DNA of 64,000 nt from Anaerolineales bacterium (GCA_035291465.1 DATDRZ010000048.1:630-64629); one strand, 5' to 3'; positions 7,229 to 27,246 are shown, counted from the first letter of the stretch. Numbers and translations are program-made. The notes: generated from the sequence alone by a model not told the origin.

Positions 7229-8146
7229 ATGAAGGCTCTCAACCATTCTGAAGCCCGCACGCTGATCGAGCGAGCCGCCGACGGCCTGCTGACGTCCGAT
7301 CAGCAGCGCGCGTTGGAAAGCCACCTGCAGGGCTGCGCAGATTGCCGCGCCTACGCCGGGGAGTTCGCCGCCTTGGAGGCCGCGCTGGGAGACACCTTCT
7401 TGGAGCGATGGGGCAAGCCGCAACTCTCTCAAGCTACAGAAAATAAGCTGGTAAAGCAGCTTCAGGAAACCTTTGGGCCAAACGGGGGATCTGGCGGGGG
7501 ACCGGGAGCGAAGTCTTTCGGTAATTGGGCGCGATGGGCGGGGCCCCTGATTCTTTTGGTTTTACTTGCGGCTGCTGCGATGGCCACCCTCGAGTTTCGG
7601 GCGGCTCAACCTAAACAAGAAACCGTTGAACTAATGCTGGATCTATTCGAGTCGGAAACTCCAACCCCCACGGCGAGTCGAACTGCGACAGTCACCAGAA
7701 CTGTTACCAAAACCCCTGCCGAAACCCCGAGCCCGCTGGTACTGGTTGCCATTCCAAAGCGGAATGCTAATTGCCGCGAAGGAAACGGAAATTCATTTGA
7801 TATTGCGGATACGTTGTTCGAAGGAGTTCCATACACTCCAATTGCGCGTGGATTTGACAACCTTTGGGTTCAGTTCCGGGGACCGGTCACCAACGTCAAA
7901 TGTTGGGCATTTATAGAAAACATCGATCTATTGATCGATGAGGTCGTGACTCCGATTGAGGAAATCCCGGAAAGCCTGCTCCCCTTTGTCGGCTACCCGC
8001 CGAGCCCCACCCCGACCTTTACGGCCACGCCAACCTCGGCCACCCAGCCGCAATGCAGCGATGGCATTGACAATGACAAGGACGGAGCCATTGACATGCA
8101 AGATAAAGATTGCAAAGACCGGCTGGATAACAACGAATTTGACTAA
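7229..8146 (+). CDS. anti-sigma factor (zf-HC2) with extracytoplasmic SH3-like domain and C-terminal DNDxDG motif
   Basis: Lies 10 nt after the sigma gene. HLQGCADC fits H-x3-C-x2-C. Single TM (GPLILLVLLAAAAMATL), TP linker, ectodomain NCREGNG...RGFDNLWVQF...CWAF, tail CSDGIDNDKDGAIDMQDKDC. Confidence 0.85.
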   Translation: MKALNHSEARTLIERAADGLLTSDQQRALESHLQGCADCRAYAGEFAALEAALGDTFLERWGKPQLSQATENKLVKQLQETFGPNGGSGGGPGAKSFGNWARWAGPLILLVLLAAAAMATLEFRAAQPKQETVELMLDLFESETPTPTASRTATVTRTVTKTPAETPSPLVLVAIPKRNANCREGNGNSFDIADTLFEGVPYTPIARGFDNLWVQFRGPVTNVKCWAFIENIDLLIDEVVTPIEEIPESLLPFVGYPPSPTPTFTATPTSATQPQCSDGIDNDKDGAIDMQDKDCKDRLDNNEFD

Positions 8147-8343: not shown

Positions 8344-10755
8344 ATGGAAACCAAATCTCATCTGTTCATTAGTCTTGCCGGTCTGCTGGTTTTACTGCTG
8401 GCGGCCTGCGCTCCCGCAGGCGGAACACCGACAGTAGAACACGGTGCGCAACCAGGAGATCCGCTATACCAGCAACTAGTCTGGGACTGCAACACCGGCG
8501 AGAACTTGCCGGCCGACTACAGCACCGATGGGCCGATCCAGCCTGATGCAGGTTGTGATAACTGGCAGATCAACCGCTACGAACGCCCCTTTAACCCAGA
8601 GACCCAGGATATTTTCTTACCCGATCTGGACATTCTTTCCGCCGAATTGGGAACCGATGGGACCTGGTTTTATTTCCGGCTTTCTGTTTTTGATGTGAAC
8701 CAGGAAACCCAGGGATTGGACGGAACCTACGCTATTGAAATCGACATTGACATCGATGGTCGCGGGGACGTACTTGTCTTAGCTCGCAATCCTGGGGAAG
8801 AAGCCACTGAAGATTGGACGGTCCTCGGCGTTCAATTCCTCGGTGATGATGACAATGACGTCGGTGACCAGCAGCCCTTGGCCCCGGACCCACCCAATGC
8901 CGGAGATGGATACGACATCCTTGCCTTCGATCAAGGCCAGGGTGAAGACCCCGACCTTGCCTGGGCGCGTTACAAGCCTGGCAAACCGGCCATACTTGAA
9001 ATAGCCTTTAAGGCCTCCGGCATCTACAACGATCCCACATTCAAATGGTGGGCCTGGACCGATGAAGGCGTAGATAACCCGGCCGGTTTTGATTACCACG
9101 ACTTATATGATCACCCCGAAGCTGGAGATCCTAATGAAAGCCAGCCCTTCTTCCCCTCTCAAGCCATCAACGAGATGGACAACACCTGTGCGGCTATTTG
9201 GGGAACGGAACCTGGAGACGATCCGGATCTTTGTGTAAACGACGACTCGGTACCGCCTCCGGTAACACATCCCTCGCCAACGCCGACTCAGACCCCGGAA
9301 GACGAAACGCCAACTGCAACTCCTACCGCACCCTCAGAAACTCCCTGTGTGTTGGCGGATTTGGTCGTTGGCGCTACACCGGAAACGTGTACACCAACTC
9401 CCTCGCCCAGCCCCACCATGACGGCAACGCCTTGCGCGGCCTTTAACGCCAATAACACTGCAGGAATACCAAACACCTGCACACCAACACCCACTGAGTG
9501 CGTTCCCGAAATACCGGAAGACCTAATCGGCCCGGTCCAGACTATTCAGGCGAGCGGCGGTTTTGGCGGTCTAATTCGCGGCGGAGAAGAGACCATAACC
9601 CCTGGTCCCGCGGCCGAAGCTTGGGCAACCATACAGGCCTATTTCACCCAAACCCCAGGTGCAGGCCAGTTGATACGTGGCGGCTACGATTGCACGCCCA
9701 CGCCAACACCCACACCAACTGCAAGTTACACGCCGACGGTCACAGCCACTCCCTGTGTGCCGTTCGCGGCCACGGCCAACATCCCTAACACCTGCACTCC
9801 CACGCCTACGCTGTCGCCGACGCCCACACTGACTACCACGGATTGCTACAGCCTTTCTACTTACCTAGCTGCCAATTTGGTTGCCACTTGCACTCCCACC
9901 ATCACATACACTCCTACCGATACACCCACGACCTGCGCCACACTGAATCCGTTTACCGGGCAGCTTGAGGAATGCACACCAACTCCTACCGATTGTTATG
10001 TGCCGGTTGTCGGTGCGGTTGCCAACGTGGCCGTTACCTGCACACCTACCCCTACGCCGACGCCGACTGACTGCTATGTAGACTTCCCCTTTGCAAAGGT
10101 GGATTGCACCCCAACGCCTACGCCGACGCCCAGTCTCACTCCAACCCAGTGCACGGGTTTGAGCCCCGATACAACGGCGCCGTTGCCAATGCCCTGCACG
10201 CCCACTCCTACCGACTGCATCACGGTTGACTTCGCGGCAGCTTCAGTTTCCAACTGCACACCTACACCGACGCCCACTGAGTGTCTCGTCGGCGTCCAGA
10301 TCGGAGTTGATGAAGCCGGCGCTCCGATCTACGCGTACGAACGCTGCACGCCGACACCAACACCGACAGAGTGCATTGGATCCGATGCAGCAGGCGTGGT
10401 CGTTCCTTGCACGCCCACTCCCGAGACGGCAGCCTTGATGGTCTTCCCAGAACAGGACACCAACTGCCGGCAAAGCAACGCGCAAGGGGCGCCGATCCTT
10501 AGAACATTGTTGATGGGCCAAGGATATATACCGCTCGGGCGTGGTCCAGATAACTTATGGATGCTTTTCCTGGTGGACGGTGCACACTGTTGGGCGCTGG
10601 CTTCCCTGTTCGTCATCCCGTTCGGTCCGCTGCCAGATGTTCCGGGAGACGTGCTGCCGTACATTAACTATCCAACAGCGACGCCTACATCAATCCCGCC
10701 AACGTTCACACGCACTCCCACTCCCACAGCCACAAGGCCGCAAACCATACCGTGA
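8344..10755 (+). CDS. large secreted lipoprotein with Cys-loop/TPTPT repeat array
   Basis: GAGGAG RBS and lipobox LLVLLLAAC. An acidic N-domain of about 290 aa, about 12 C-x(10-20)-C loops each followed by TPTPT, and a C-terminal domain similar to the anti-sigma ectodomain. Confidence 0.85.
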   Translation: METKSHLFISLAGLLVLLLAACAPAGGTPTVEHGAQPGDPLYQQLVWDCNTGENLPADYSTDGPIQPDAGCDNWQINRYERPFNPETQDIFLPDLDILSAELGTDGTWFYFRLSVFDVNQETQGLDGTYAIEIDIDIDGRGDVLVLARNPGEEATEDWTVLGVQFLGDDDNDVGDQQPLAPDPPNAGDGYDILAFDQGQGEDPDLAWARYKPGKPAILEIAFKASGIYNDPTFKWWAWTDEGVDNPAGFDYHDLYDHPEAGDPNESQPFFPSQAINEMDNTCAAIWGTEPGDDPDLCVNDDSVPPPVTHPSPTPTQTPEDETPTATPTAPSETPCVLADLVVGATPETCTPTPSPSPTMTATPCAAFNANNTAGIPNTCTPTPTECVPEIPEDLIGPVQTIQASGGFGGLIRGGEETITPGPAAEAWATIQAYFTQTPGAGQLIRGGYDCTPTPTPTPTASYTPTVTATPCVPFAATANIPNTCTPTPTLSPTPTLTTTDCYSLSTYLAANLVATCTPTITYTPTDTPTTCATLNPFTGQLEECTPTPTDCYVPVVGAVANVAVTCTPTPTPTPTDCYVDFPFAKVDCTPTPTPTPSLTPTQCTGLSPDTTAPLPMPCTPTPTDCITVDFAAASVSNCTPTPTPTECLVGVQIGVDEAGAPIYAYERCTPTPTPTECIGSDAAGVVVPCTPTPETAALMVFPEQDTNCRQSNAQGAPILRTLLMGQGYIPLGRGPDNLWMLFLVDGAHCWALASLFVIPFGPLPDVPGDVLPYINYPTATPTSIPPTFTRTPTPTATRPQTIP
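9330..10420 (+). repeat. coding repeat array: TGCAC(N)CC(N)AC(N)CC(N)AC (= C-T-P-T-P-T) recurring about 12 times
   Basis: Recurrent CTPTP(T/S/E) after each closing Cys. Antisense frames read GVGVGV. Confidence 0.8.
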
Positions 10756-10941: not shown

Positions 10942-12177
10942 ATGTTTAGGAAACAAAGCGCCACCACACCTCATCGGTTCAGTCCGGATGATAGGCAAAT
11001 CACGCGGCCGTCTGCCGCCGTGCCGCGCCGACCGAACCGGGCTGGTTCCGGCGGCAAGGACAATGATCCACCGTCAAGTGATCGGCCCGGATGCTTAGCC
11101 GGTCTTTTCAAATCCCCATTTATTACTGCGGTTGCGGTTCTGGTAGCAGCCTTGTTCCTGGTCTCCGCCGCCAGCGCCGCGGTTGGTTGGTCACTGGGTT
11201 CCATCGAATACTCCGCCACGGCAACGATGGAAGCCGGAATTTATATGCTAGATCAATATAACCTGGCGCTAGCAGATTTAGAGGCTGGCAGCCTTTCCCT
11301 GGCCCGCCAGCGCTTGGAATTTATCTTCGCACAAAATCCAAATTTCCTGGACGTCCAGCAGCAGCTGTTGCAGGTGCTGGTAGCACTGGGCAACAACCCT
11401 GAGCCGATCAGCGGATTGCCCACGGAAACCCCAACCCCGACGCCTGACCCGCGGCCAAAAGAGGAGCTTTTCAACGCGGCTCAAGCGTTGTTCATTGCGC
11501 GCGACTGGACGGGGACCATCGACACGCTGTTATCGCTGCGCAAAGCGGATCCGAATTTTCGTACTGCCGACGTGGATGGCATGTTCTACGCATCTCTGCG
11601 CAACCGGGGAGCACAAAACATTTTGGAGCTGGGTCTGTTCGAGCCCGGTCTTTATGATTTCTCACTGGCAGAAAAATTCGGACCTTTGGACGCGGACGCC
11701 CAAAAATACCGCACCTGGGCAAGACTATATTTGTGGGGCAATGCATTTTGGCTGGCCTACCCGCAAGATGCCGCCTACTACTATGGACAGGTTGCTTCAC
11801 TGGCGCCCAACCTTACTGATGCTTCGGGAATATCGGCTTTCTCACGCTACTGGCATTCACTCATTCACTGGGGAGACCAGCTCGTTACGGATGAAGACTG
11901 GTGCGGCGCGTATGAACAATATCAAGTAGCACTGACCGTTCGCAACGAAGCCGACCTGCAGGGAAAGTCCGATCAGGCCTACAGCCTGTGCTTCGTAGCT
12001 ACCAACACGCCTGCGTTTACAGCAACTTTTACGCCGACAATCACTTTTCTCCCTTTTACTGAAACGCCGGGTTTAACCGCAACGCCGACATTTACCCCGG
12101 GAGCCATTACGGCAACACCCAGTCCCACGCCCACATCCAGTCCCACCCCCACACCTACGGAAACACCGACCCCCTAA
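10942..12177 (+). CDS. single-pass membrane protein with helical-repeat (TPR-like) ectodomain and TP-rich tail
   Basis: 411-aa ORF. Basic cytoplasmic N-terminus, TM (FITAVAVLVAALFLVSAASAAV), C-terminal TPTFTPGAITATPSPTPTSSPTPTPTETPTP. The stop lies 3 nt before the LCP gene. Confidence 0.7.
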   Translation: MFRKQSATTPHRFSPDDRQITRPSAAVPRRPNRAGSGGKDNDPPSSDRPGCLAGLFKSPFITAVAVLVAALFLVSAASAAVGWSLGSIEYSATATMEAGIYMLDQYNLALADLEAGSLSLARQRLEFIFAQNPNFLDVQQQLLQVLVALGNNPEPISGLPTETPTPTPDPRPKEELFNAAQALFIARDWTGTIDTLLSLRKADPNFRTADVDGMFYASLRNRGAQNILELGLFEPGLYDFSLAEKFGPLDADAQKYRTWARLYLWGNAFWLAYPQDAAYYYGQVASLAPNLTDASGISAFSRYWHSLIHWGDQLVTDEDWCGAYEQYQVALTVRNEADLQGKSDQAYSLCFVATNTPAFTATFTPTITFLPFTETPGLTATPTFTPGAITATPSPTPTSSPTPTPTETPTP

Positions 12178-12179
12178 GC

Positions 12180-13571
12180 ATGGCTCGATCAAAGATCCGC
12201 GAATTTTTACAGCGAAATCGGAGGCTCTCGATACTGGCCATCGCAGCCTTCTTTGTAATCGCCATCCTGCTGATCCCACTTAGCTACACATTCGCACACT
12301 GGGTGGCTGCTGCCCCCCGGGGTGCCTTTGGTCTGCCTGTCCCCTTACAGGGAGGAGCAGGCACACTAAGCCCAGATATCCTCGAGACCCCAGGAGGGTT
12401 CACGCTGCCCGAACCCTGGAGTGGCGCTGACCGGGTAACGATCCTCCTCATGGGTCTGGATTATCGCGACTGGAGCGCCGGAGAGGGGCCGTCGCGAACC
12501 GACACCATGATCCTGCTCAGTGTCGATCCGGTGACCAAGACGGCCAGTATTCTTTCCATTCCCCGTGATTTGTGGGCAGTGATACCCGGTTTCTCCCCCA
12601 ATAAGATCAATACCGCCCACTATTATGGCGAGCTATATAAGGTCCCTGGCGGGGGACCGGAACTGGCCATGCGCACCGTTGAGCAGACCATTGGAATACC
12701 AATCGATTACTATGCCCGTATTGATTTCAACGCGTTCATCAAATTCATTGATTTGATCGGCGGTGTGAAGATCGACGTTCCGGAACCGATCACAGTGGAT
12801 CCACTCGGGGCGGACACGCAGCCTAAGAATCTCAAACCGGGGATACAAACGCTCCCCGGTGCTGTGGCGCTGGCCTACGCCCGCGAACGCCACGTGAAAG
12901 GCGGCGATTTTTCGCGCGCAGAACGCCAGCAGCAGATCATCTTGGGAATCCGAAACCGCATTCTTGAGTTCAATCTGTTACCTGGACTGATCGCAAACGC
13001 ACCGCAAATCTATGCTGAACTGTCCGCGGGCATTTCATCTAATCTGTCGCTTGAAGACGCAATCCAATTGGCGGTGCTTGCCAGCCAAATCGATTCGGCC
13101 AATATCAAACGGGGAGTCATCAATGAGAAATACGTGATTTTTGGACGTTCACCGGATGATCTTTCCATCTTGATCCCTATCCCTGACAAAATCCGCGAAC
13201 TGCGCGATGAAATCTTCACCGGTAACGCAGGCCTGGGTCCACTCACCCCAGGCAGCCCCGAAGAGCGTCTCGCCGCCGAAGCTCCGCGCATCTCCATCCA
13301 AAACGGAACATCGGATGGCAGCCTGGGTGGGCGGACACAGGCGTTCCTTGCCGGCCTTGGAGCCAACATTGTTGAAGTTCGCGCTACCGGCAGCGCGCTA
13401 AGCCAAACCATTTTAGTCGACCATACCGGCAACCCTTACACGCTTGCCTATCTGTCCCAACTGATGGGCGTGGAAAGTTCGCGCATCATCCACGAGTTCG
13501 ATCCGACGAATTCGATCGATGTAGAAATCCGCTTAGGCAACGACTGGCTAGCGAGCAATTCATTGCCCTAG
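12180..13571 (+). CDS. LytR-CpsA-Psr (LCP) family glycopolymer ligase, paralog 1
   Basis: N-terminal TM; RTDTMILLSVDP...ILSIPRDLW...NKINTAHYYG signature; C-terminal LytR_C-like region. Confidence 0.9.
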   Translation: MARSKIREFLQRNRRLSILAIAAFFVIAILLIPLSYTFAHWVAAAPRGAFGLPVPLQGGAGTLSPDILETPGGFTLPEPWSGADRVTILLMGLDYRDWSAGEGPSRTDTMILLSVDPVTKTASILSIPRDLWAVIPGFSPNKINTAHYYGELYKVPGGGPELAMRTVEQTIGIPIDYYARIDFNAFIKFIDLIGGVKIDVPEPITVDPLGADTQPKNLKPGIQTLPGAVALAYARERHVKGGDFSRAERQQQIILGIRNRILEFNLLPGLIANAPQIYAELSAGISSNLSLEDAIQLAVLASQIDSANIKRGVINEKYVIFGRSPDDLSILIPIPDKIRELRDEIFTGNAGLGPLTPGSPEERLAAEAPRISIQNGTSDGSLGGRTQAFLAGLGANIVEVRATGSALSQTILVDHTGNPYTLAYLSQLMGVESSRIIHEFDPTNSIDVEIRLGNDWLASNSLP

Positions 13572-13788: not shown

Positions 13789-14604
13789 ATGGCCAAAAAC
13801 AAAAGACCACAAATCCTGCTTACCAACGACGACGGAATCAACTCCCCCGGGCTCTGGGTGGCTGCAGAAGCCCTCTCAGGACTTGGCTATGTGTGGGTGG
13901 CGGCACCGCGCGAGCAATCCTCAGGCATGGGGCGCAGCATGCCGCCTACTTCCGACGGCATCATCACCGCGCAGACAATCACCATCCACGAAAAAGAATG
14001 GACGATCTATGCGGTGGGTGGCACTCCTGCACAAACTGTGCAGCACGCCATCCTCGAAATCATGCCCACCCCACCAGACCTGGTGGTGGCCGGCATCAAC
14101 TACGGCACGAACTTTGGCACGGGGGTCACTATTTCGGGCACAGTTGGCGCTGCAATGGAAGGGGCATCGCACAACATCCCATCCCTAGCGGTCTCGCTCG
14201 AGACGGAACACAAATACCATCTAAGCCATTCCAAAGAGGTAGATTTCAAGCCCTCAGCGTACTTCACCACTTTATTCGCGCGGCAACTGTTAACGAAGAG
14301 ATTTCCACCGGATGTCCAGGTTTTAAAAGTGGAAGTGCCTTCGGATGCAACCATAGAAACTCCGTGGGCACTCACCCGGCTTTCAAAGCTACGCTTTTAT
14401 CTGCCAACAGCCCCTAACCGCAACTCATGGAGCGAACCGGGTTCCACGGGCTATGAACAAGTGCCGGAGGCCAGTGCTTTTGCAAAGGATACGGATGTTT
14501 ATACGGTCATCGTCAAGCGCCAGGTGGCAGTAACGCCCCTCACGTTGGACATGACCTCTAATGTTTCTTTTGAGGAATTGAAAAAGGAGCTCAAACAAAC
14601 TTGA
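13789..14604 (+). CDS. surE: 5'/3'-nucleotidase SurE
   Basis: ILLTNDDGINSPGL N-terminal signature; 271 aa. Confidence 0.9.
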   Translation: MAKNKRPQILLTNDDGINSPGLWVAAEALSGLGYVWVAAPREQSSGMGRSMPPTSDGIITAQTITIHEKEWTIYAVGGTPAQTVQHAILEIMPTPPDLVVAGINYGTNFGTGVTISGTVGAAMEGASHNIPSLAVSLETEHKYHLSHSKEVDFKPSAYFTTLFARQLLTKRFPPDVQVLKVEVPSDATIETPWALTRLSKLRFYLPTAPNRNSWSEPGSTGYEQVPEASAFAKDTDVYTVIVKRQVAVTPLTLDMTSNVSFEELKKELKQT

Positions 14605-14731: not shown

Positions 14732-15829
14732 TTAATTGTTTATCGGCAACGATTGCTTTTCCGACAATTTGCCGGCTCTAATCATCCAAAGCAATGCGGC
14801 CCAGGTAAGCAATAGAACGCCGGTCCAATAGGTGTATTCCCATTCAGCCCGGATTGATGTTTGTCCTAAAAACAGATAAGGGAGGTAATAAAGAGCCAAG
14901 AGAACATAGCCGACGAACGATCCGCTTTGAAGGACAGGGAATACGCCAATCACAAAAGGAACCAGAAAGCTGCTCCCAGAATACGGAGCCAACAACATAC
15001 TGGCTGTGATCAGCATGGCGACTTCGTGATTTCTTAATTTGCTCCAACCCTTTTGTAATCCCCAAAGCGTTGCAAGCAGCACAACAATCCAAGAGCCGAA
15101 GATCACCGGCTCCGGTAATTCAAACCTGGATAACGCACCCCAAATACTACTATCAATATCGGATCCGATAGGGAAGCGGCGTAAAGCTTCAAACCAAGCG
15201 GGCCACTTCCAAATCAAAAAGGGCACTACATATATAACGCTCAAGGCTGCGACTTTCGCGATTTTTTCCCTTGGCCATTTCAGCAAAACCCATAAGGCAG
15301 CCGAAAGGAGCAGTAACCAACTCTCCTGCGGTTTGCTGGAAAGCAATATCAGGGATGCTGCCGCTGCCCAAGGGGTTTCCGTTTCGAGAGCCCAAAGGAA
15401 CAGCAGCACACCAAGGATGATTAAAAATTCCATGTTGCCATCCACCAGCTGGCGTGCAGCGGGGTAAGAAAGAGAGAGCAGCAACAGGTAAGACCCCCAC
15501 TTGAAGAGGTTGGACTTACGAGGAACACTTAGCGCCAACGTAACTAGGGTGGAAAAAACGAAAAACCCCCCACTAACTGCAAATGGCCAGATCGTAATCG
15601 GCCATAGCAGGGCCAGCGTCCAGGGGGGATTAAAAATCCGAACGCCTTCATAGTTAATGGAGAAATTATGAGTAGCTTTCCAATACATTTCCCAATCCAA
15701 GATAAAGCCGGGGATGGTTACGAAATACTCTCCTAACCTTCCAAAGGTGTAAGTCAAGATAATGAACAACAAAAACATACTCGCTATTTTTTTAACTCGA
15801 TCAACGCCAAGCATTTGCAATTCAGCCAT
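14732..15829 (-). CDS. GT-C-type membrane glycosyltransferase (DUF2029/GT87-like)
   Basis: 365 aa with about 10 TM helices. The first loop, ILDWEMYWKA...IFNPPW, resembles polyprenol-phosphate-sugar-dependent GT87/DUF2029 proteins. Its start overlaps the upstream ppm-like gene by 8 nt. Confidence 0.6.
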   Translation of the reverse strand: MAELQMLGVDRVKKIASMFLLFIILTYTFGRLGEYFVTIPGFILDWEMYWKATHNFSINYEGVRIFNPPWTLALLWPITIWPFAVSGGFFVFSTLVTLALSVPRKSNLFKWGSYLLLLSLSYPAARQLVDGNMEFLIILGVLLFLWALETETPWAAAASLILLSSKPQESWLLLLSAALWVLLKWPREKIAKVAALSVIYVVPFLIWKWPAWFEALRRFPIGSDIDSSIWGALSRFELPEPVIFGSWIVVLLATLWGLQKGWSKLRNHEVAMLITASMLLAPYSGSSFLVPFVIGVFPVLQSGSFVGYVLLALYYLPYLFLGQTSIRAEWEYTYWTGVLLLTWAALLWMIRAGKLSEKQSLPINN

Positions 15830-16532
15830 ATCTCCATTTCACCTGCCACACACGCCAGGCGGCTTCCAGCTGGACGCGGATATTCATTTTCGATTCCCCC
15901 CACTTCCGGTCGGCGAAGTAAATAGGCACTTCGCCGAAGCGGCAGCCTTGCAACTGCGCCAGGTAGAGCAGCTCTACCAGAAATACATAGCCATTGGATA
16001 TCACGTACCGGTAAGGTATACGTTGCAGCATTTCGCGGCGCCACAATCGGAAACCCCCGGTTACATCCCGCACCGGCAGCCCCAGGATGCTGCGCGCGTA
16101 AAAGTTCGCCCAGCGCGAGAGCGCCTTGCGCCATAGGGGCCAGCGTTCATCCACCCCGCCGCCGGGAATATACCGGGAACCCAAAGCCAGGTCGCAGGTT
16201 TCAAGCCTGGCTGCCAGAGCTGGCAACTTCTCTGGTGGATGTGAAAAGTCGCAGTCCATCTGCCCTATGGCCTCGGCATCGCCTTGCAAAGCGTGTTCAA
16301 AGGCAAATACATAGGCGCGACCCAGCCCGCGAGGACCTTTGCGATGCAAGACCTCTATTCGGCCGGGAAACTGTTTTGCCAAGCCCTCGGCCACATCTCC
16401 CGTACCATCCGGGCTCAGGTCGTCAACGATCAGTAAACGAAGATCAGGAAGCCCCAGGTTGAAGAGCGCTGGAACCAGCCGCGGGAGGTTTTCGGCTTCG
16501 TTATAGGTGGGCAAAACCAGGGTTATTTTCAT
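15822..16532 (-). CDS. polyprenol-monophosphomannose synthase (GT2, Ppm1/DPM1-like)
   Basis: VLPTYNEAENL, LLIVDDLSPDGT and RKGPRGLGRAY are typical of dolichol/polyprenol-phosphate mannosyltransferases. Confidence 0.88.
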   Translation of the reverse strand: MKITLVLPTYNEAENLPRLVPALFNLGLPDLRLLIVDDLSPDGTGDVAEGLAKQFPGRIEVLHRKGPRGLGRAYVFAFEHALQGDAEAIGQMDCDFSHPPEKLPALAARLETCDLALGSRYIPGGGVDERWPLWRKALSRWANFYARSILGLPVRDVTGGFRLWRREMLQRIPYRYVISNGYVFLVELLYLAQLQGCRFGEVPIYFADRKWGESKMNIRVQLEAAWRVWQVKWRYG

Positions 16533-16541
16533 GCAAACCTA

Positions 16542-17177
16542 TCAGGCAATCGGCTCTTTTGGGATCACGAAGCGGCATAGTTCTCCGCCAGCCGCCAGGC
16601 ATTCGGCTTCATCGACCCGGAACTCGCGGCCGCCCGAAATCCTGTTTAGCGCTTCTTGCAGAATGCCAACCATCATGAAACAGACCGGCTTCTCTTCCCC
16701 ACTGCGTCCCCAACACACGGAATTGCGGTGAACGAGGTAATGGAATTCGGGCGATTTTTCCTGCACACGGCTAGGCTGATCGCTGAAATCGCTGAAGATT
16801 CTGGCGAGCGCGCCAAGCCCCACCTTCAGTTTAAGATTCATTGATAACATCCTGAATGCGGCGGCCTCTACGCCTTCCAGCGCACCGAAATGGCTGAGTG
16901 CGTTATTGAAGACCATGCGCCCAGCCCGCAAGGCCAACCCGCGGCCTCCGCGCGGCCCATAATATTCCTCCAAGCCGAGGTTCAAAGCTCCCATTTCTGA
17001 GAAATCGAAACCGCGCTCAAGATTCGCCAGCGGATAATTCTGGATAAGGTGTTGCAAATGGGCGAGGGTAAGCAATGTCTCCATCCCCTTAGGCGTAAGC
17101 AATTCCTCGATAGTCTGTAAAGTGATACGGGCTAATCTGTTGGGCAGCTTGTACCCACTTGGTGGGATCGCGTCCAT
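16542..17177 (-). CDS. V4R domain protein
   Basis: C-terminal CWGRSGEEKPVCFMMVGILQEAL...VDEAECLAAGGELCRFVI is the V4R (4-vinyl-reductase-type) Cys pattern. Confidence 0.75.
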   Translation of the reverse strand: MDAIPPSGYKLPNRLARITLQTIEELLTPKGMETLLTLAHLQHLIQNYPLANLERGFDFSEMGALNLGLEEYYGPRGGRGLALRAGRMVFNNALSHFGALEGVEAAAFRMLSMNLKLKVGLGALARIFSDFSDQPSRVQEKSPEFHYLVHRNSVCWGRSGEEKPVCFMMVGILQEALNRISGGREFRVDEAECLAAGGELCRFVIPKEPIA

Positions 17178-17194
17178 TTCTCGCCCGCTGTGAT

Positions 17195-17611
17195 TTAGAG
17201 CAATGATTGCAAATCTGCAATTACATGGCGTATTTCGAGTAACAGCAGACCTAGGCGAGCGTCATTTTTGGCCATCACCGTAAGCACGGCTTGATGACCT
17301 GCAGCGGTCAACACCGCGAAGCCCTCTGCCCCGCGAATGTATACCTGCTGCATTTTGCCGCGCCCAAGCTCCGCGGCAATGCGTTCGCCGAGAGACAACA
17401 AAGCAGCGGACATGGCTGCCACGCGGTCCTCCGAAATGGGCGGGTTGAGCACCGCAGCGATGCTCAACCCGTCGTTGCTTACGACCGCCGAGCCTTCGAC
17501 CTCGGGCGTCGAATCTTGGAACGCGCGCAGGCGCTCTACCAGATGCTGGGTTCGCGTTGGATTCACAGATTCTCTAGTCAACACGGTGGGAAATGAAACT
17601 AACTGTAGCAT
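17195..17611 (-). CDS. Roadblock/LC7 (MglB-like) domain protein
   Basis: 138 aa. EVEGSAVVSNDGLSIAA...AAMSAALLSLGERIAAELGRG...VYIRGAEGFAVL is typical of Roadblock/LC7. Confidence 0.8.
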   Translation of the reverse strand: MLQLVSFPTVLTRESVNPTRTQHLVERLRAFQDSTPEVEGSAVVSNDGLSIAAVLNPPISEDRVAAMSAALLSLGERIAAELGRGKMQQVYIRGAEGFAVLTAAGHQAVLTVMAKNDARLGLLLLEIRHVIADLQSLL

Positions 17612-17676
17612 AGCGGATTAGGGGTGTCAAGAAACTTGATTTCGGAGCCATTTTTGCAACGTGAAAAGGAAATATA

Positions 17677-18945
17677 ATGCCGCTTATGCTCATCCATTCA
17701 GCGGGGCAACTGTTGACGCTGGCCGGTGGCCCGCAGCGCGGTCGTGCACTGGGAATGTTAGGAATTATCGAAGACGGCGCGGTATTAATCCGTGAAGGCC
17801 GGATTGTTGCGACGGGCTCAAGCGCCGATCTGCGCCGCAAAAATCCCGATGAAGTGGAGTTGGATGCCGGCGGCCGAGTGGTGATGCCCGGCTTCGTCGA
17901 TGCACATTCGCATCCGATTTGGGCCGGCGACCGCGCCGCAGAATTCGAACAGCGGCTGCGGGGCAAGACCTACTTGGAAATTCTCAATGCGGGTGGTGGA
18001 ATACTTTCCACTGTAAGGGCAACCCGCGGCGCATCCATGGGGGACTTGCTCAGCCAAACTCGCCCGCGGCTCCAGCGCATGTTCAATCATGGTTCTACCA
18101 CCGTCGAGGCCAAGACCGGCTACGGATTGGACTTCGATACGGAGCTACATTTGATGGAAGCGCTACTTCAGCTGGACGCCGAAGGGCCCTGGGAACTGAC
18201 CGTCACTTATCTTGCCGCCCATGCCATCCCGCCCGAATTCAAAGGAAGAGCCGAAGATTACACTAACGAATTGTGCAGGAATTGGCTCCCTGGAGTGAAA
18301 GATTGGTGGACACAAAACGTGCCGGAAAAGACTTTGCCTTTCGTCGACGTATTTTGCGAGACCGGCGCATTCGACTTACGTCAGTCACGACGAATTCTGG
18401 AAACGGCTAAAGGGCTTGGTTTCCCTCTTAAAATCCATTCCGACGAGTTCGACAACCTCGGCGGCACGCGCATGGCTGTCGAATTAGGCTCGGTCAGCGC
18501 AGACCACCTCATTAGCGTTTCGCCTGAAGAGATTGCTGTGTTGGCCGACAGCGATACGGTGGCCGTAGCCTTGCCGGCTACGCCATTCGGCCTGGCTGAG
18601 CTGCACAGCATGCCCGCAAGGGCCATCCTCGAAGCGGACGGACTACTGGCAGTGGGAAGTGACCTGAATCCGGGCACGGCTTGGGGCGAAAGCCTTCAAT
18701 TTGCCATAGCCCTGGCTTGCCGCAGCCTAGGGCTCACTCCAGCACAGGCTATTGCCGCAACCACCATCAATGGTGCCGCAGCCATCCAGCGCCAGAATGT
18801 AATTGGATCGATTGAAGCCGGAAAACAGGCCGACCTGCTTATTCTGGATGCAATAGACTACCGCCATCTTGGTTACCGTTTTGGCACTAATCTTGTACGT
18901 ACAGTGATCAAGAAAGGGACACCTTATCCGGTGGCACGCCATTGA
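17677..18945 (+). CDS. hutI: imidazolonepropionase
   Basis: PGFVDAHSHPIWAGDRAAEFEQRLRGKTYLEI..., KIHSDEF, amidohydrolase fold; 422 aa. Confidence 0.88.
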   Translation: MPLMLIHSAGQLLTLAGGPQRGRALGMLGIIEDGAVLIREGRIVATGSSADLRRKNPDEVELDAGGRVVMPGFVDAHSHPIWAGDRAAEFEQRLRGKTYLEILNAGGGILSTVRATRGASMGDLLSQTRPRLQRMFNHGSTTVEAKTGYGLDFDTELHLMEALLQLDAEGPWELTVTYLAAHAIPPEFKGRAEDYTNELCRNWLPGVKDWWTQNVPEKTLPFVDVFCETGAFDLRQSRRILETAKGLGFPLKIHSDEFDNLGGTRMAVELGSVSADHLISVSPEEIAVLADSDTVAVALPATPFGLAELHSMPARAILEADGLLAVGSDLNPGTAWGESLQFAIALACRSLGLTPAQAIAATTINGAAAIQRQNVIGSIEAGKQADLLILDAIDYRHLGYRFGTNLVRTVIKKGTPYPVARH

Positions 18946-26554: not shown

Positions 26555-27139
26555 TCAATCGTGAGCCTCTCCAATGAATTTATCGCCGGTGTCGATGCGA
26601 ACTATGGCGCCTTCGTCTGCCGGAACGGGCGTCGGGCCGCCTTGCGCGGGCGTTTCAGCTAGCACATTCCCATTCTCATCTTCGAAACGGATTGAGAAAT
26701 AGTCTAGGCTTCGGGGCGCGGGACCATAGATCCACGTGCCATTGTGTTCGTACTGCGAACCGTGGCAAGGGCAAATGAATTTAAATTCCTGATCGTTCCA
26801 GCCATACAAACAACCCAGATGCGGGCAAACTTTGTAGAGCGCCATCAGCCCTTCCGGAGTATGGGATAACCACAATTTGACTTTGGGGAAATTGGCGGGC
26901 GCTGTGTCTACGGCGGGCAAATCCGCGACCGTTCCGGTAGTGAACACGCCTCCGAACTCGCCTTCGCGAAAGCGGGGCAGGCCGAATAATATGGTCATGC
27001 CACTGACGCTCAGGGTCAGGAATCCCAGGGAGGCAAGCCAAGCAATATTAAGAAACTCGCGGCGATTCAGTTTGAGTTGTTCTTGCTCTACGGCACGGCT
27101 GGTTTCAGCTTGGCCGGCGGGTACGGCAGCTTCGGTCAT
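26555..27139 (-). CDS. Rieske [2Fe-2S] subunit
   Basis: Tat-like RREFLN, CPHLGC and CPCHGS boxes. Confidence 0.9.
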   Translation of the reverse strand: MTEAAVPAGQAETSRAVEQEQLKLNRREFLNIAWLASLGFLTLSVSGMTILFGLPRFREGEFGGVFTTGTVADLPAVDTAPANFPKVKLWLSHTPEGLMALYKVCPHLGCLYGWNDQEFKFICPCHGSQYEHNGTWIYGPAPRSLDYFSIRFEDENGNVLAETPAQGGPTPVPADEGAIVRIDTGDKFIGEAHD

Positions 27140-27246
27140 GAGGCGCTTCCTCCAAATAGTCCGGGAATTACCTTGCGCATTTTATCACTACTGAAAACGC
27201 CTTACAAGCAGATTCTAATATTCAAGAAAAAATCATGGTAGCAAGC

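Follow-up and report, generated by a model that had tools for sequence, protein, structure and literature searches.

A Roadblock/LC7-V4R gene pair linked across Anaerolineae to a DPM1-like glycosyltransferase, with a variable GT-C slot downstream

A 64,000-nucleotide stretch from an Anaerolineales bacterium (GCA_035291465.1 DATDRZ010000048.1:630-64629; "the window" denotes this whole stretch) contains four minus-strand open reading frames (ORFs) that encode, in order, a Roadblock/LC7 protein, a stand-alone V4R protein, a family 2 glycosyltransferase (GT2) of the DPM1/Ppm1 type and a polytopic GT87-like glycosyltransferase of the GT-C class. Here, the four genes and their equivalents in related genomes were analyzed, and a core of the first three was found to be shared across the class Anaerolineae. 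An earlier note made from the sequence alone had reported the four ORFs to be tightly packed, with gaps of 17 nt and 9 nt followed by an 8-nt overlap, which is exactly what was found (Table 1), and its assignment of the proteins to Roadblock/LC7, V4R, Ppm1/DPM1-like GT2 and GT-C glycosyltransferase families was borne out in all four cases by the comparisons described below.

The genes flanking this set on both sides lie on the opposite strand, which makes the four genes a self-contained unit. A promoter candidate matching the consensus at 10 of 12 positions, with an extended -10 TG, was the sole promoter-like match between positions 14400 and 17900; it is located in the divergent intergenic region common to the operon and the HutI-like gene, and it overlaps the ATG (17611) of a 138-aa version of the Roadblock ORF. 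Given this overlap, and because Roadblock gene calls are 123-124 aa long in the eight relatives examined, the start was placed at GTG 17566, most likely producing a protein of 123 aa. Four weak terminator-like matches in the same interval were rejected as internal terminators, as they were fewer than the mean for shuffled sequence (5.1) and all fell within coding sequence, and no Rfam family of riboswitches or leader RNAs matched the operon region at E <= 0.1. A GGAG motif is positioned directly 5' of the GT87 ATG, within the 3' end of the GT2 gene, and the start-stop overlap between these two genes was seen again in relatives, which together fit translational coupling of GT87 to GT2. Overall, transcription of the four genes as one operon fits their close spacing and terminal overlap, the presence of one promoter-like site and the opposite orientation of the flanking genes.

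Table 1 Features of the Roadblock-V4R-GT2-GT87 locus, its flanks, and the second module found in related loci (L numbers).
Feature	Position	Strand	Basis or remark
Sigma-70-like promoter candidate	17602..17630	-	TTGACA, 17 nt spacer, TG-TACAGT; consensus match only
Roadblock/LC7 (MglB-family) protein	17195..17566, 123 aa; alternative start ATG 17611, 138 aa	-	Pfam Robl_LC7
Stand-alone V4R / H-NOX / TRAPPC3-fold protein	16542..17177, 211 aa	-	Pfam V4R and AlphaFold 2 fold
DPM1/Ppm1-type GT2 without transmembrane segment, predicted polyprenyl-phosphate mannose synthase	15822..16532, 236 aa	-	Pfam and alignment with PfDPMS
PimE-like GT87 GT-C protein, polytopic	14732..15829, 365 aa	-	Pfam GT87 and fold match
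HutI-like amidohydrolase (flank)	17677-18945	+	next gene on Roadblock side
SurE (flank)	13789-14604	+	next gene on GT87 side
Second module	L068:10457-15795; L088:7147-13323; L089:7059-13406; L090:7155-11412		

The Roadblock protein matched Pfam Robl_LC7 (PF03259) over model positions 2-90 of 91 (E 1.8e-18; 66.5 bits against a gathering threshold of 23). Its nearest PDB entries were 7f8m (E 8e-26) and CvnB5 (3leq, E 5e-10), both short Roadblock proteins, and similarity to MglB proper was marginal in the same comparison (E ~0.08). An Asp-Gly pair (D32-G33) is invariant in seven orthologues; this pair is a feature of the MglB partners of GTPGQ-type MglA proteins, Groups 2-5 (PMC4316618). As neither the operon nor the rest of the 64-kb window encodes an MglA-family GTPase, the protein is an "orphan" in the sense of the same study, in which 328 of 749 MglB homologues (44%) from 1,611 surveyed genomes had no MglA within four genes and none of the orphans had been characterized at the time (PMC4316618). 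By that count, the lack of a GTPase, which had been called unusual, is commonplace for this family.

For the V4R protein, the Pfam model (PF02830; E 5.3e-11; 42.9 bits against a gathering threshold of 31) spans only the C-terminal 57 residues. In the AlphaFold 2 model (predicted local distance difference test, pLDDT, 84), the entire 211 aa adopt the H-NOX/V4R/TRAPPC3 alpha/beta fold, and Foldseek matched this model to the H-NOX domain of soluble guanylate cyclase (E 5.6e-5), phenol-bound MopR (E 4e-4) and palmitoylated TRAPPC3 (E 8e-4), as well as to Nostoc H-NOX, archaeal Thor-TRAPPC3 and BcsD. All 18 sequences compared share four cysteines (C155, C166, C193 and C201), which probably form a zinc site, a matching site having been reported for PoxR and Thor-TRAPPC3 (PMC10933270). 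The family, with 1600 hits, has its members in Anaerolineales and other Chloroflexota, and nearly all of the 120 listed proteins are 211 aa long.

The GT2 protein matched Pfam Glycos_transf_2 (E 1.1e-29), and its best PDB match was the catalytic domain of Pyrococcus furiosus dolichol-phosphate mannose synthase (PfDPMS; 5mlz, E 1.5e-30, residues 1-233). Using the donor and acceptor residue roles described for this enzyme type (PMC5526996), the DxD signature DCDFSHPPE was found to align with DADLQHPPE of PfDPMS (relatives carry DADFSHPPE), the guanine-binding Asp is kept, VDDxSPDGT is conserved, the acceptor-phosphate site (GSRY, WRK and LS) aligns with PfDPMS Arg117, Arg131 and Ser135, and the Arg/Lys of the A-loop are retained (...DRKWGESK...). 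No NCBIfam equivalog matched the protein at cut-off. The GT2 has no transmembrane (TM) segment and is therefore type-II-like; DPM1 proteins of this type, the human one among them, depend on separate subunits for membrane targeting (PMC5526996).

Conservation of the locus was assessed in the best 80 of at least 536 species-representative genomes that encode a relative of the V4R protein, all 80 of which belong to Anaerolineae. The Roadblock gene was found directly upstream of V4R in every locus (80/80; median gap, 13 nt), and in 71 of the 76 loci with enough sequence GT2 followed downstream in the same orientation, either directly, as in the window (24 loci), or with a response regulator between V4R and GT2 (47 loci). 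This linkage still held as V4R identity dropped to ~52% across the sample. Gene content on either side varied widely: the upstream neighbor belonged to 26 different families across 70 loci and the downstream neighbor to 18 across 58 loci, most of these genes being encoded on the opposite strand. As the core persists while its flanks turn over, the pattern can be read as selection for linkage of Roadblock, V4R and, where present, the response regulator with the synthase. The conserved unit is Roadblock-V4R-(REC/degenerate-GGDEF regulator)-GT2 and not the four genes seen in the window: of the four-gene neighborhood that had been proposed, the Roadblock-V4R-GT2 part extends across the class, and the GT87 part is limited to the closest clade.

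The intervening response regulator (283 aa) combines a REC domain (E 4e-30) with a GGDEF-type domain (E 3e-7) and has no helix-turn-helix. Its phospho-acceptor Asp is kept in 57/57 cases, and the GGDEF motif is degenerate, so that the output is probably non-catalytic and either nucleotide- or protein-binding. Variable sequences such as GHLSxTDF or GQSDSARF take the place of the motif in 47 loci (for example L035:8649-9500), and a paralogue of the regulator in L068 and three other loci carries GGDNF. On the V4R tree, the direct architecture appears at many separate places, from which the order Roadblock-V4R-regulator-GT2 looks ancestral, with repeated loss of the regulator. No homologue of the regulator was found in the window, and the gene looks to have been lost from the locus in this clade.

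These observations bear on whether Roadblock and V4R could be constitutive accessory subunits of the synthase, free of any signalling role and comparable to DPM2/DPM3 or mycobacterial Ppm2, for example with the V4R pocket holding or presenting the polyprenyl-phosphate tail and Roadblock dimerizing the complex. We regard this as rather improbable. The absence of a membrane anchor from GT2 speaks for it, since type-II synthases need partners, as do the lipid and hydrophobic ligands bound by the V4R fold (palmitate in TRAPPC3, phenol in MopR; PMC10933270), the V4R-like fold of BcsD, itself the partner of a GT2 synthase, and an operon spacing and order consistent with 1:1 co-translation. However, Roadblock and V4R are soluble and cannot themselves anchor the synthase, the presence of a phospho-accepting regulator in the operon in 47/76 genomes points to signalling, Roadblock-V4R-regulator is kept without GT2 in four genomes, and a V4R paralogue operates in the GTPase-containing module described below.

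The last protein of the operon scored above the Pfam GT87 threshold (E 1.2e-7; 32.2 bits against a gathering threshold of 25), with orthologues scoring 35.3 bits (L007) and, below threshold, 19.9 bits (L013). Sequence and profile searches of the PDB returned no match even at E 10. In a Foldseek comparison of the AlphaFold 2 model, which is of moderate quality (pLDDT 70.7), the best PDB match was PimE (9dm5/9dm7; E 2.4e-5, TM-score 0.61; sequence identity ~15-18%), followed by PIG-M, PglB and ALG9. Residues D45-W46, directly after the first TM helix, are invariant in nine homologues, D45 being a candidate counterpart of the catalytic Asp of PimE. A search of 5.8 billion proteins detected only nine homologues, and every one with genomic context sits directly after this GT2, an arrangement seen only in the closest clade (the window, L001, L002, L007, L013, L086 and L087). 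GT87 is 38-40% identical to its positional orthologues, compared with 76-89% for HutI, Roadblock, V4R, GT2 and SurE in the same loci, and its GC content of 47.0% (52.7% at third codon positions, GC3) lies below that of its neighbors (GC 55-59%, GC3 59-65%). This composition fits either recent cassette replacement or strong diversifying pressure. The GT87 gene is thus a clade-specific, compositionally odd and hypervariable add-on to the conserved unit.

Other genes occupy the position after GT2 in related loci. A PMT_2-type GT-C gene fills the same slot in L004 and L005, and the downstream flanks of L004 (PMT_2) and L086 (GT87) are alike, with a ~200-aa opposite-strand gene followed by a HerA-like gene. 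The closest named genome (L006) has a PMT_2 gene at the slot on the opposite strand; this gene (L006:9561-10523, minus strand) encodes only 320 aa with an odd C-terminus and may be what remains of a GT-C cassette after truncation or a frameshift. In several close relatives GT2 is followed by no GT-C gene, and in more distant loci it is followed by a gene for an MFS transporter (9 loci), by one for KsgA in the opposite orientation (23 loci) or by other genes. The MFS protein (~427 aa) is encoded on the GT2 strand in all nine loci (e.g., L036:10395-11681, L047:9591-10871 and L075:9368-10651) and could be a flippase or exporter for the lipid-linked sugar, or unrelated. Two large polytopic proteins encoded convergently to GT2 on the minus strand, one of 711 aa with ~14 TM helices and no Pfam match (L076:9393-11528) and the other a Wzy_C (O-antigen-ligase-like) protein of 1082 aa that has TPR repeats (L044:4838-8086), are further envelope-glycan genes at this variable position.

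The earlier note had also described the window as full of secreted proteins with Thr-Pro (TP) linkers and proposed these as O-mannosylation substrates. This was an overstatement, as TP runs were found in three adjacent plus-strand ORFs (7229-8146, 8344-10755 and 10942-12177) and weakly in one further ORF. The three ORFs cluster at 7.2-12.2 kb and are followed by a gene of the LytR-CpsA-Psr (LCP) family (12180-13571); the 803-aa TP-rich product of the middle ORF (8344-10755) had no Pfam family match, and the LCP-SurE linkage was seen again in L003, L004 and L087. Characterized GT87 enzymes mannosylate phosphatidylinositol mannosides and lipoglycans rather than proteins, which makes the link to TP-linker O-mannosylation conjecture; with so few TP-run ORFs it found no support here.

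The absence of a GTPase from the operon, which had been pointed out before, holds for the entire window: none of the ORFs of at least 90 aa carries a credible P-loop GTPase signature, and a tblastn search with an Anaerolineae small GTPase gave no match. The sole Walker-A motif ([AG]xxxxGK[ST]) among these ORFs occurs in a spurious-looking 105-aa frame (26877-27194) without G3 or G4 motifs, and a 64-kb window without any P-loop NTPase gene is itself unusual. The gene for a GTPase partner probably lies in another part of the genome, and a candidate emerged from a clade of seven genomes in which an extra block directly follows GT2. This block, the second module of Table 1, begins with a PatA_N (DUF4388) protein, after which come a small GTPase of 179 aa, an alpha/beta hydrolase, a V4R paralogue and a hexapeptide-repeat protein; in L068 a second REC/GGDEF regulator is added. 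On long contigs the GTPase resides in a module of its own, and in L088 and L089 this module is likewise followed by a REC/GGDEF regulator and in addition by huge GAF-rich sensors. The V4R paralogue is 37-42% identical to the window V4R in six of the seven loci; the operon copies of V4R in all seven are only ~52-54% identical to the window V4R. No PatA_N homologue was found in the window.

The small GTPase (L068:11329-11868) matches the ATP_bind_1, Ras and Arf models and carries the motifs GPFSSGKT (G1), GTPGQ (G3) and NKQD (G4). The GTPGQ form of G3 is characteristic of MglA Groups 2-5, whose members usually pair with MglB (PMC4316618). Its family returned at least 8000 hits, the best 120 of which (P0130-P0249) are 87-100% identical across Anaerolineales. 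From this family size and identity, the GTPase is probably present in most of these Anaerolineae genomes, and such conservation, in contrast to the much lower identity of the V4R proteins, suggests many simultaneous constraints or partners. The two modules are complementary, as one has a Roadblock protein without a GTPase and the other an MglA-type GTPase without a Roadblock gene, none having been found in the contexts examined (L068 and L088-L090; gene calls or ORF listing). Each has a V4R protein and usually also a REC/degenerate-GGDEF regulator. Within the hexapeptide protein (L068:13460-14737), a left-handed beta-helix was located at residues ~208-340, and the N-terminal domain of ~200 aa had no Pfam or PDB profile match. 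This architecture resembles that of eIF2B gamma/epsilon and of the sugar-nucleotide pyrophosphorylases GlmU and GMPPB, and the protein may be an enzyme related to GDP-mannose or a regulator of a GTPase; its identification as a GDP-mannose pyrophosphorylase was not adopted, as only the beta-helix part matches (GlmU, eIF2B, GMPPB_C), and was left as a lead.

Following this complementarity, the operon could be one half of a two-locus system, a split MglA/MglB-type switch in which Roadblock acts as GTPase-activating protein or scaffold for the GTPase of the second module and the synthase is controlled by the GTPase cycle rather than by a V4R ligand alone. We consider this possible, while leaning against it. 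Placement of the GTPase module directly downstream of GT2 in the seven-genome clade, the GTPGQ motif of a normally MglB-paired group, the Asp-Gly pair that Roadblock shares with MglB partners of that group, the complementary gene content and the probable presence of the GTPase in most Anaerolineales all argue for it. In the soil sequencing run that holds the window (X1), 117 contigs match the GTPase, one of them at a depth of 11.5 compared with 11.2 for the window contig, which is only suggestive and cannot be attributed to the same genome. Conversely, the 64-kb window holds no such GTPase, and the true partner of the GTPase may be another Roadblock paralogue elsewhere. Adjacency of the two modules was also downgraded as independent evidence of a functional link, since the seven loci form one clade and represent a single evolutionary event. 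A more elaborate version, which we think unlikely, is a two-locus MglA/MglB-type GTPase circuit dedicated to mannose activation, through which the supply of lipid-linked mannose would respond to the state of a guanine nucleotide or a hydrophobic ligand. Such a circuit would join the module of Roadblock, V4R, the response regulator and the DPM1-like synthase to that of the GTPGQ GTPase, PatA_N, the V4R paralogue, the GMPPB/eIF2B-like hexapeptide protein, the second regulator and the GAF sensor.

Our preferred interpretation places control on the synthase. No DNA-binding domain was found in Roadblock, V4R or the response regulator, so these proteins cannot be transcription factors of the operon and most likely act post-translationally on the synthase. 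The conserved core contains a single enzyme, a soluble synthase whose lipid acceptor requires it to work at the membrane; its eukaryotic counterpart relies on partner subunits. We propose, with about even confidence for and against, that Roadblock and V4R gate its activity or its membrane recruitment and so set the supply of polyprenyl-phosphate-mannose. In this scheme, the Roadblock dimer would serve as a docking platform in physical contact with the synthase, the Cys4 V4R protein would bind a small hydrophobic ligand, and the phosphorylatable regulator, where present, would join in gating. The gated synthase would then set the amount of lipid-linked mannose available to extracytoplasmic GT-C enzymes. 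In the lineage of the window, the PimE-like GT87, translationally coupled to the synthase, would complete a pair of donor-maker and donor-user, and the occupant of the hypervariable slot would specify which envelope acceptor is mannosylated. This scheme differs from the split switch, which it otherwise overlaps, in the controlling input. The ligand-responsive switch over surface mannosylation put forward in the earlier note is plausible in as far as DNA-binding domains are absent and V4R has a ligand-binding fold; the switching by a ligand is retained here as a prediction.

Several points weigh against this interpretation. The classical targets of Roadblock proteins are GTPases and not glycosyltransferases. 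Mannose as the sugar of GT2 is something we infer from motif similarity only. No usable RNA run was found for the operon: the locus occurs in 24 runs, which resemble DNA metagenomes, and the sole "rna" candidate (X25) gave a single, uninformative contig of 182 nt. Furthermore, 5 of 76 loci have no GT2 beside Roadblock-V4R; the four of these that keep the response regulator indicate that the pair can exist without a synthase in cis. Finally, the sampled genomes all come from one class, and some of the conservation therefore reflects common ancestry. The last two points would also be expected if there were no functional link at all and Roadblock-V4R and GT2-GT87 were co-transcribed neighbors kept by descent within Anaerolineae, which we judge very improbable: the core has outlived at least 26 upstream and at least 18 downstream changes of context, repeated gain or loss of the regulator never split it, the linkage is intact at the lowest V4R identities, and the intergenic gaps stay operon-like.

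Parts of this locus resemble several known systems. In the gtr cassettes of Shigella, Salmonella and their phages, a conserved polyprenyl-phosphate-sugar synthase (gtrB) is followed by a swappable GT-C enzyme that uses its product outside the membrane (gtrC) in O-antigen glucosylation. The likeness lies in a conserved GT2 synthase followed by a variable, fast-evolving GT-C gene that is swapped between close relatives. In contrast to gtrABC, no ORF for a GtrA-type flippase fits the operon gaps, the GT-C is GT87/PimE-like or PMT_2 rather than of the GtrC family, the sugar is probably mannose, Roadblock and V4R precede the synthase, and the locus is not borne by a prophage but is chromosomal, with vertical conservation. 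A hypervariable GT-C slot behind a conserved synthase suggests surface-glycan diversification comparable to that by serotype-converting gtr cassettes. The same enzyme families are used in actinobacteria, where the DPM1-type synthase Ppm1 makes polyprenyl-phosphate-mannose for GT-C mannosyltransferases such as PimE (GT87) and Pmt. However, Ppm1 of mycobacteria and corynebacteria has an Lnt-like membrane protein as fusion or partner, is not clustered with PimE and is not known to have Roadblock or V4R partners. With the eukaryotic DPM1-DPM2-DPM3 complex, the GT2 shares a TM-less catalytic subunit, a DxDxSHxP-type signature and an expected need for separate partners (PMC5526996), although DPM2 and DPM3 are small two-TM membrane proteins, unlike the soluble, non-homologous Roadblock and V4R proteins proposed for this role here.

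On the regulatory side, the locus shares a Roadblock/LC7 protein with MglA-MglB systems and with Streptomyces conservons (CvnA-D), CvnB5 being among the closest solved relatives. A response-regulator link, as with RomR, and the GTPGQ motif of the related Anaerolineae GTPase further recall MglA-MglB. Conservons, however, combine a histidine kinase, Roadblock, DUF742 and a GTPase, of which only Roadblock is present here; its partners are V4R and a glycosyltransferase, and its similarity to MglB is marginal. Finally, the Roadblock and TRAPPC3 folds, encoded here side by side and in some relatives near small GTPases, are also those of eukaryotic TRAPP (TRAPPC3/Bet3) and Ragulator (Roadblock/LAMTOR) complexes, and V4R has been proposed as the ancestor of TRAPPC3 (PMC2253512). 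This likeness is at fold level only, in a bacterial setting with a glycosyltransferase as the associated enzyme, and there is no evidence of guanine-nucleotide exchange factor activity. Even so, the pairing of the two folds, in relatives also close to a small GTPase, is of comparative interest for the origin of the building blocks of eukaryotic GTPase regulators.

Full-text literature searches found no earlier description of a Roadblock-V4R-(response regulator)-DPM1-like operon. The individual parts are of known kinds; what appears to be new is the class-wide association of Roadblock/V4R with a predicted synthase of lipid-linked mannose, together with the complementary module that carries the GTPase. 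Orphans make up nearly half of the Roadblock/MglB family, and the operon links one such orphan family, together with V4R, to one defined enzyme, making its function directly testable. If the two-locus circuit were true, it would be the first function assigned to an orphan MglB and an example of bacterial Roadblock and TRAPPC3-fold proteins working with a small GTPase on a glycosylation enzyme. How bacteria set their pool of lipid-linked donor is poorly understood. Anaerolineae are abundant in soil and sludge, and a post-translational module dedicated to this pool would add a new point at which their envelope glycosylation is controlled.

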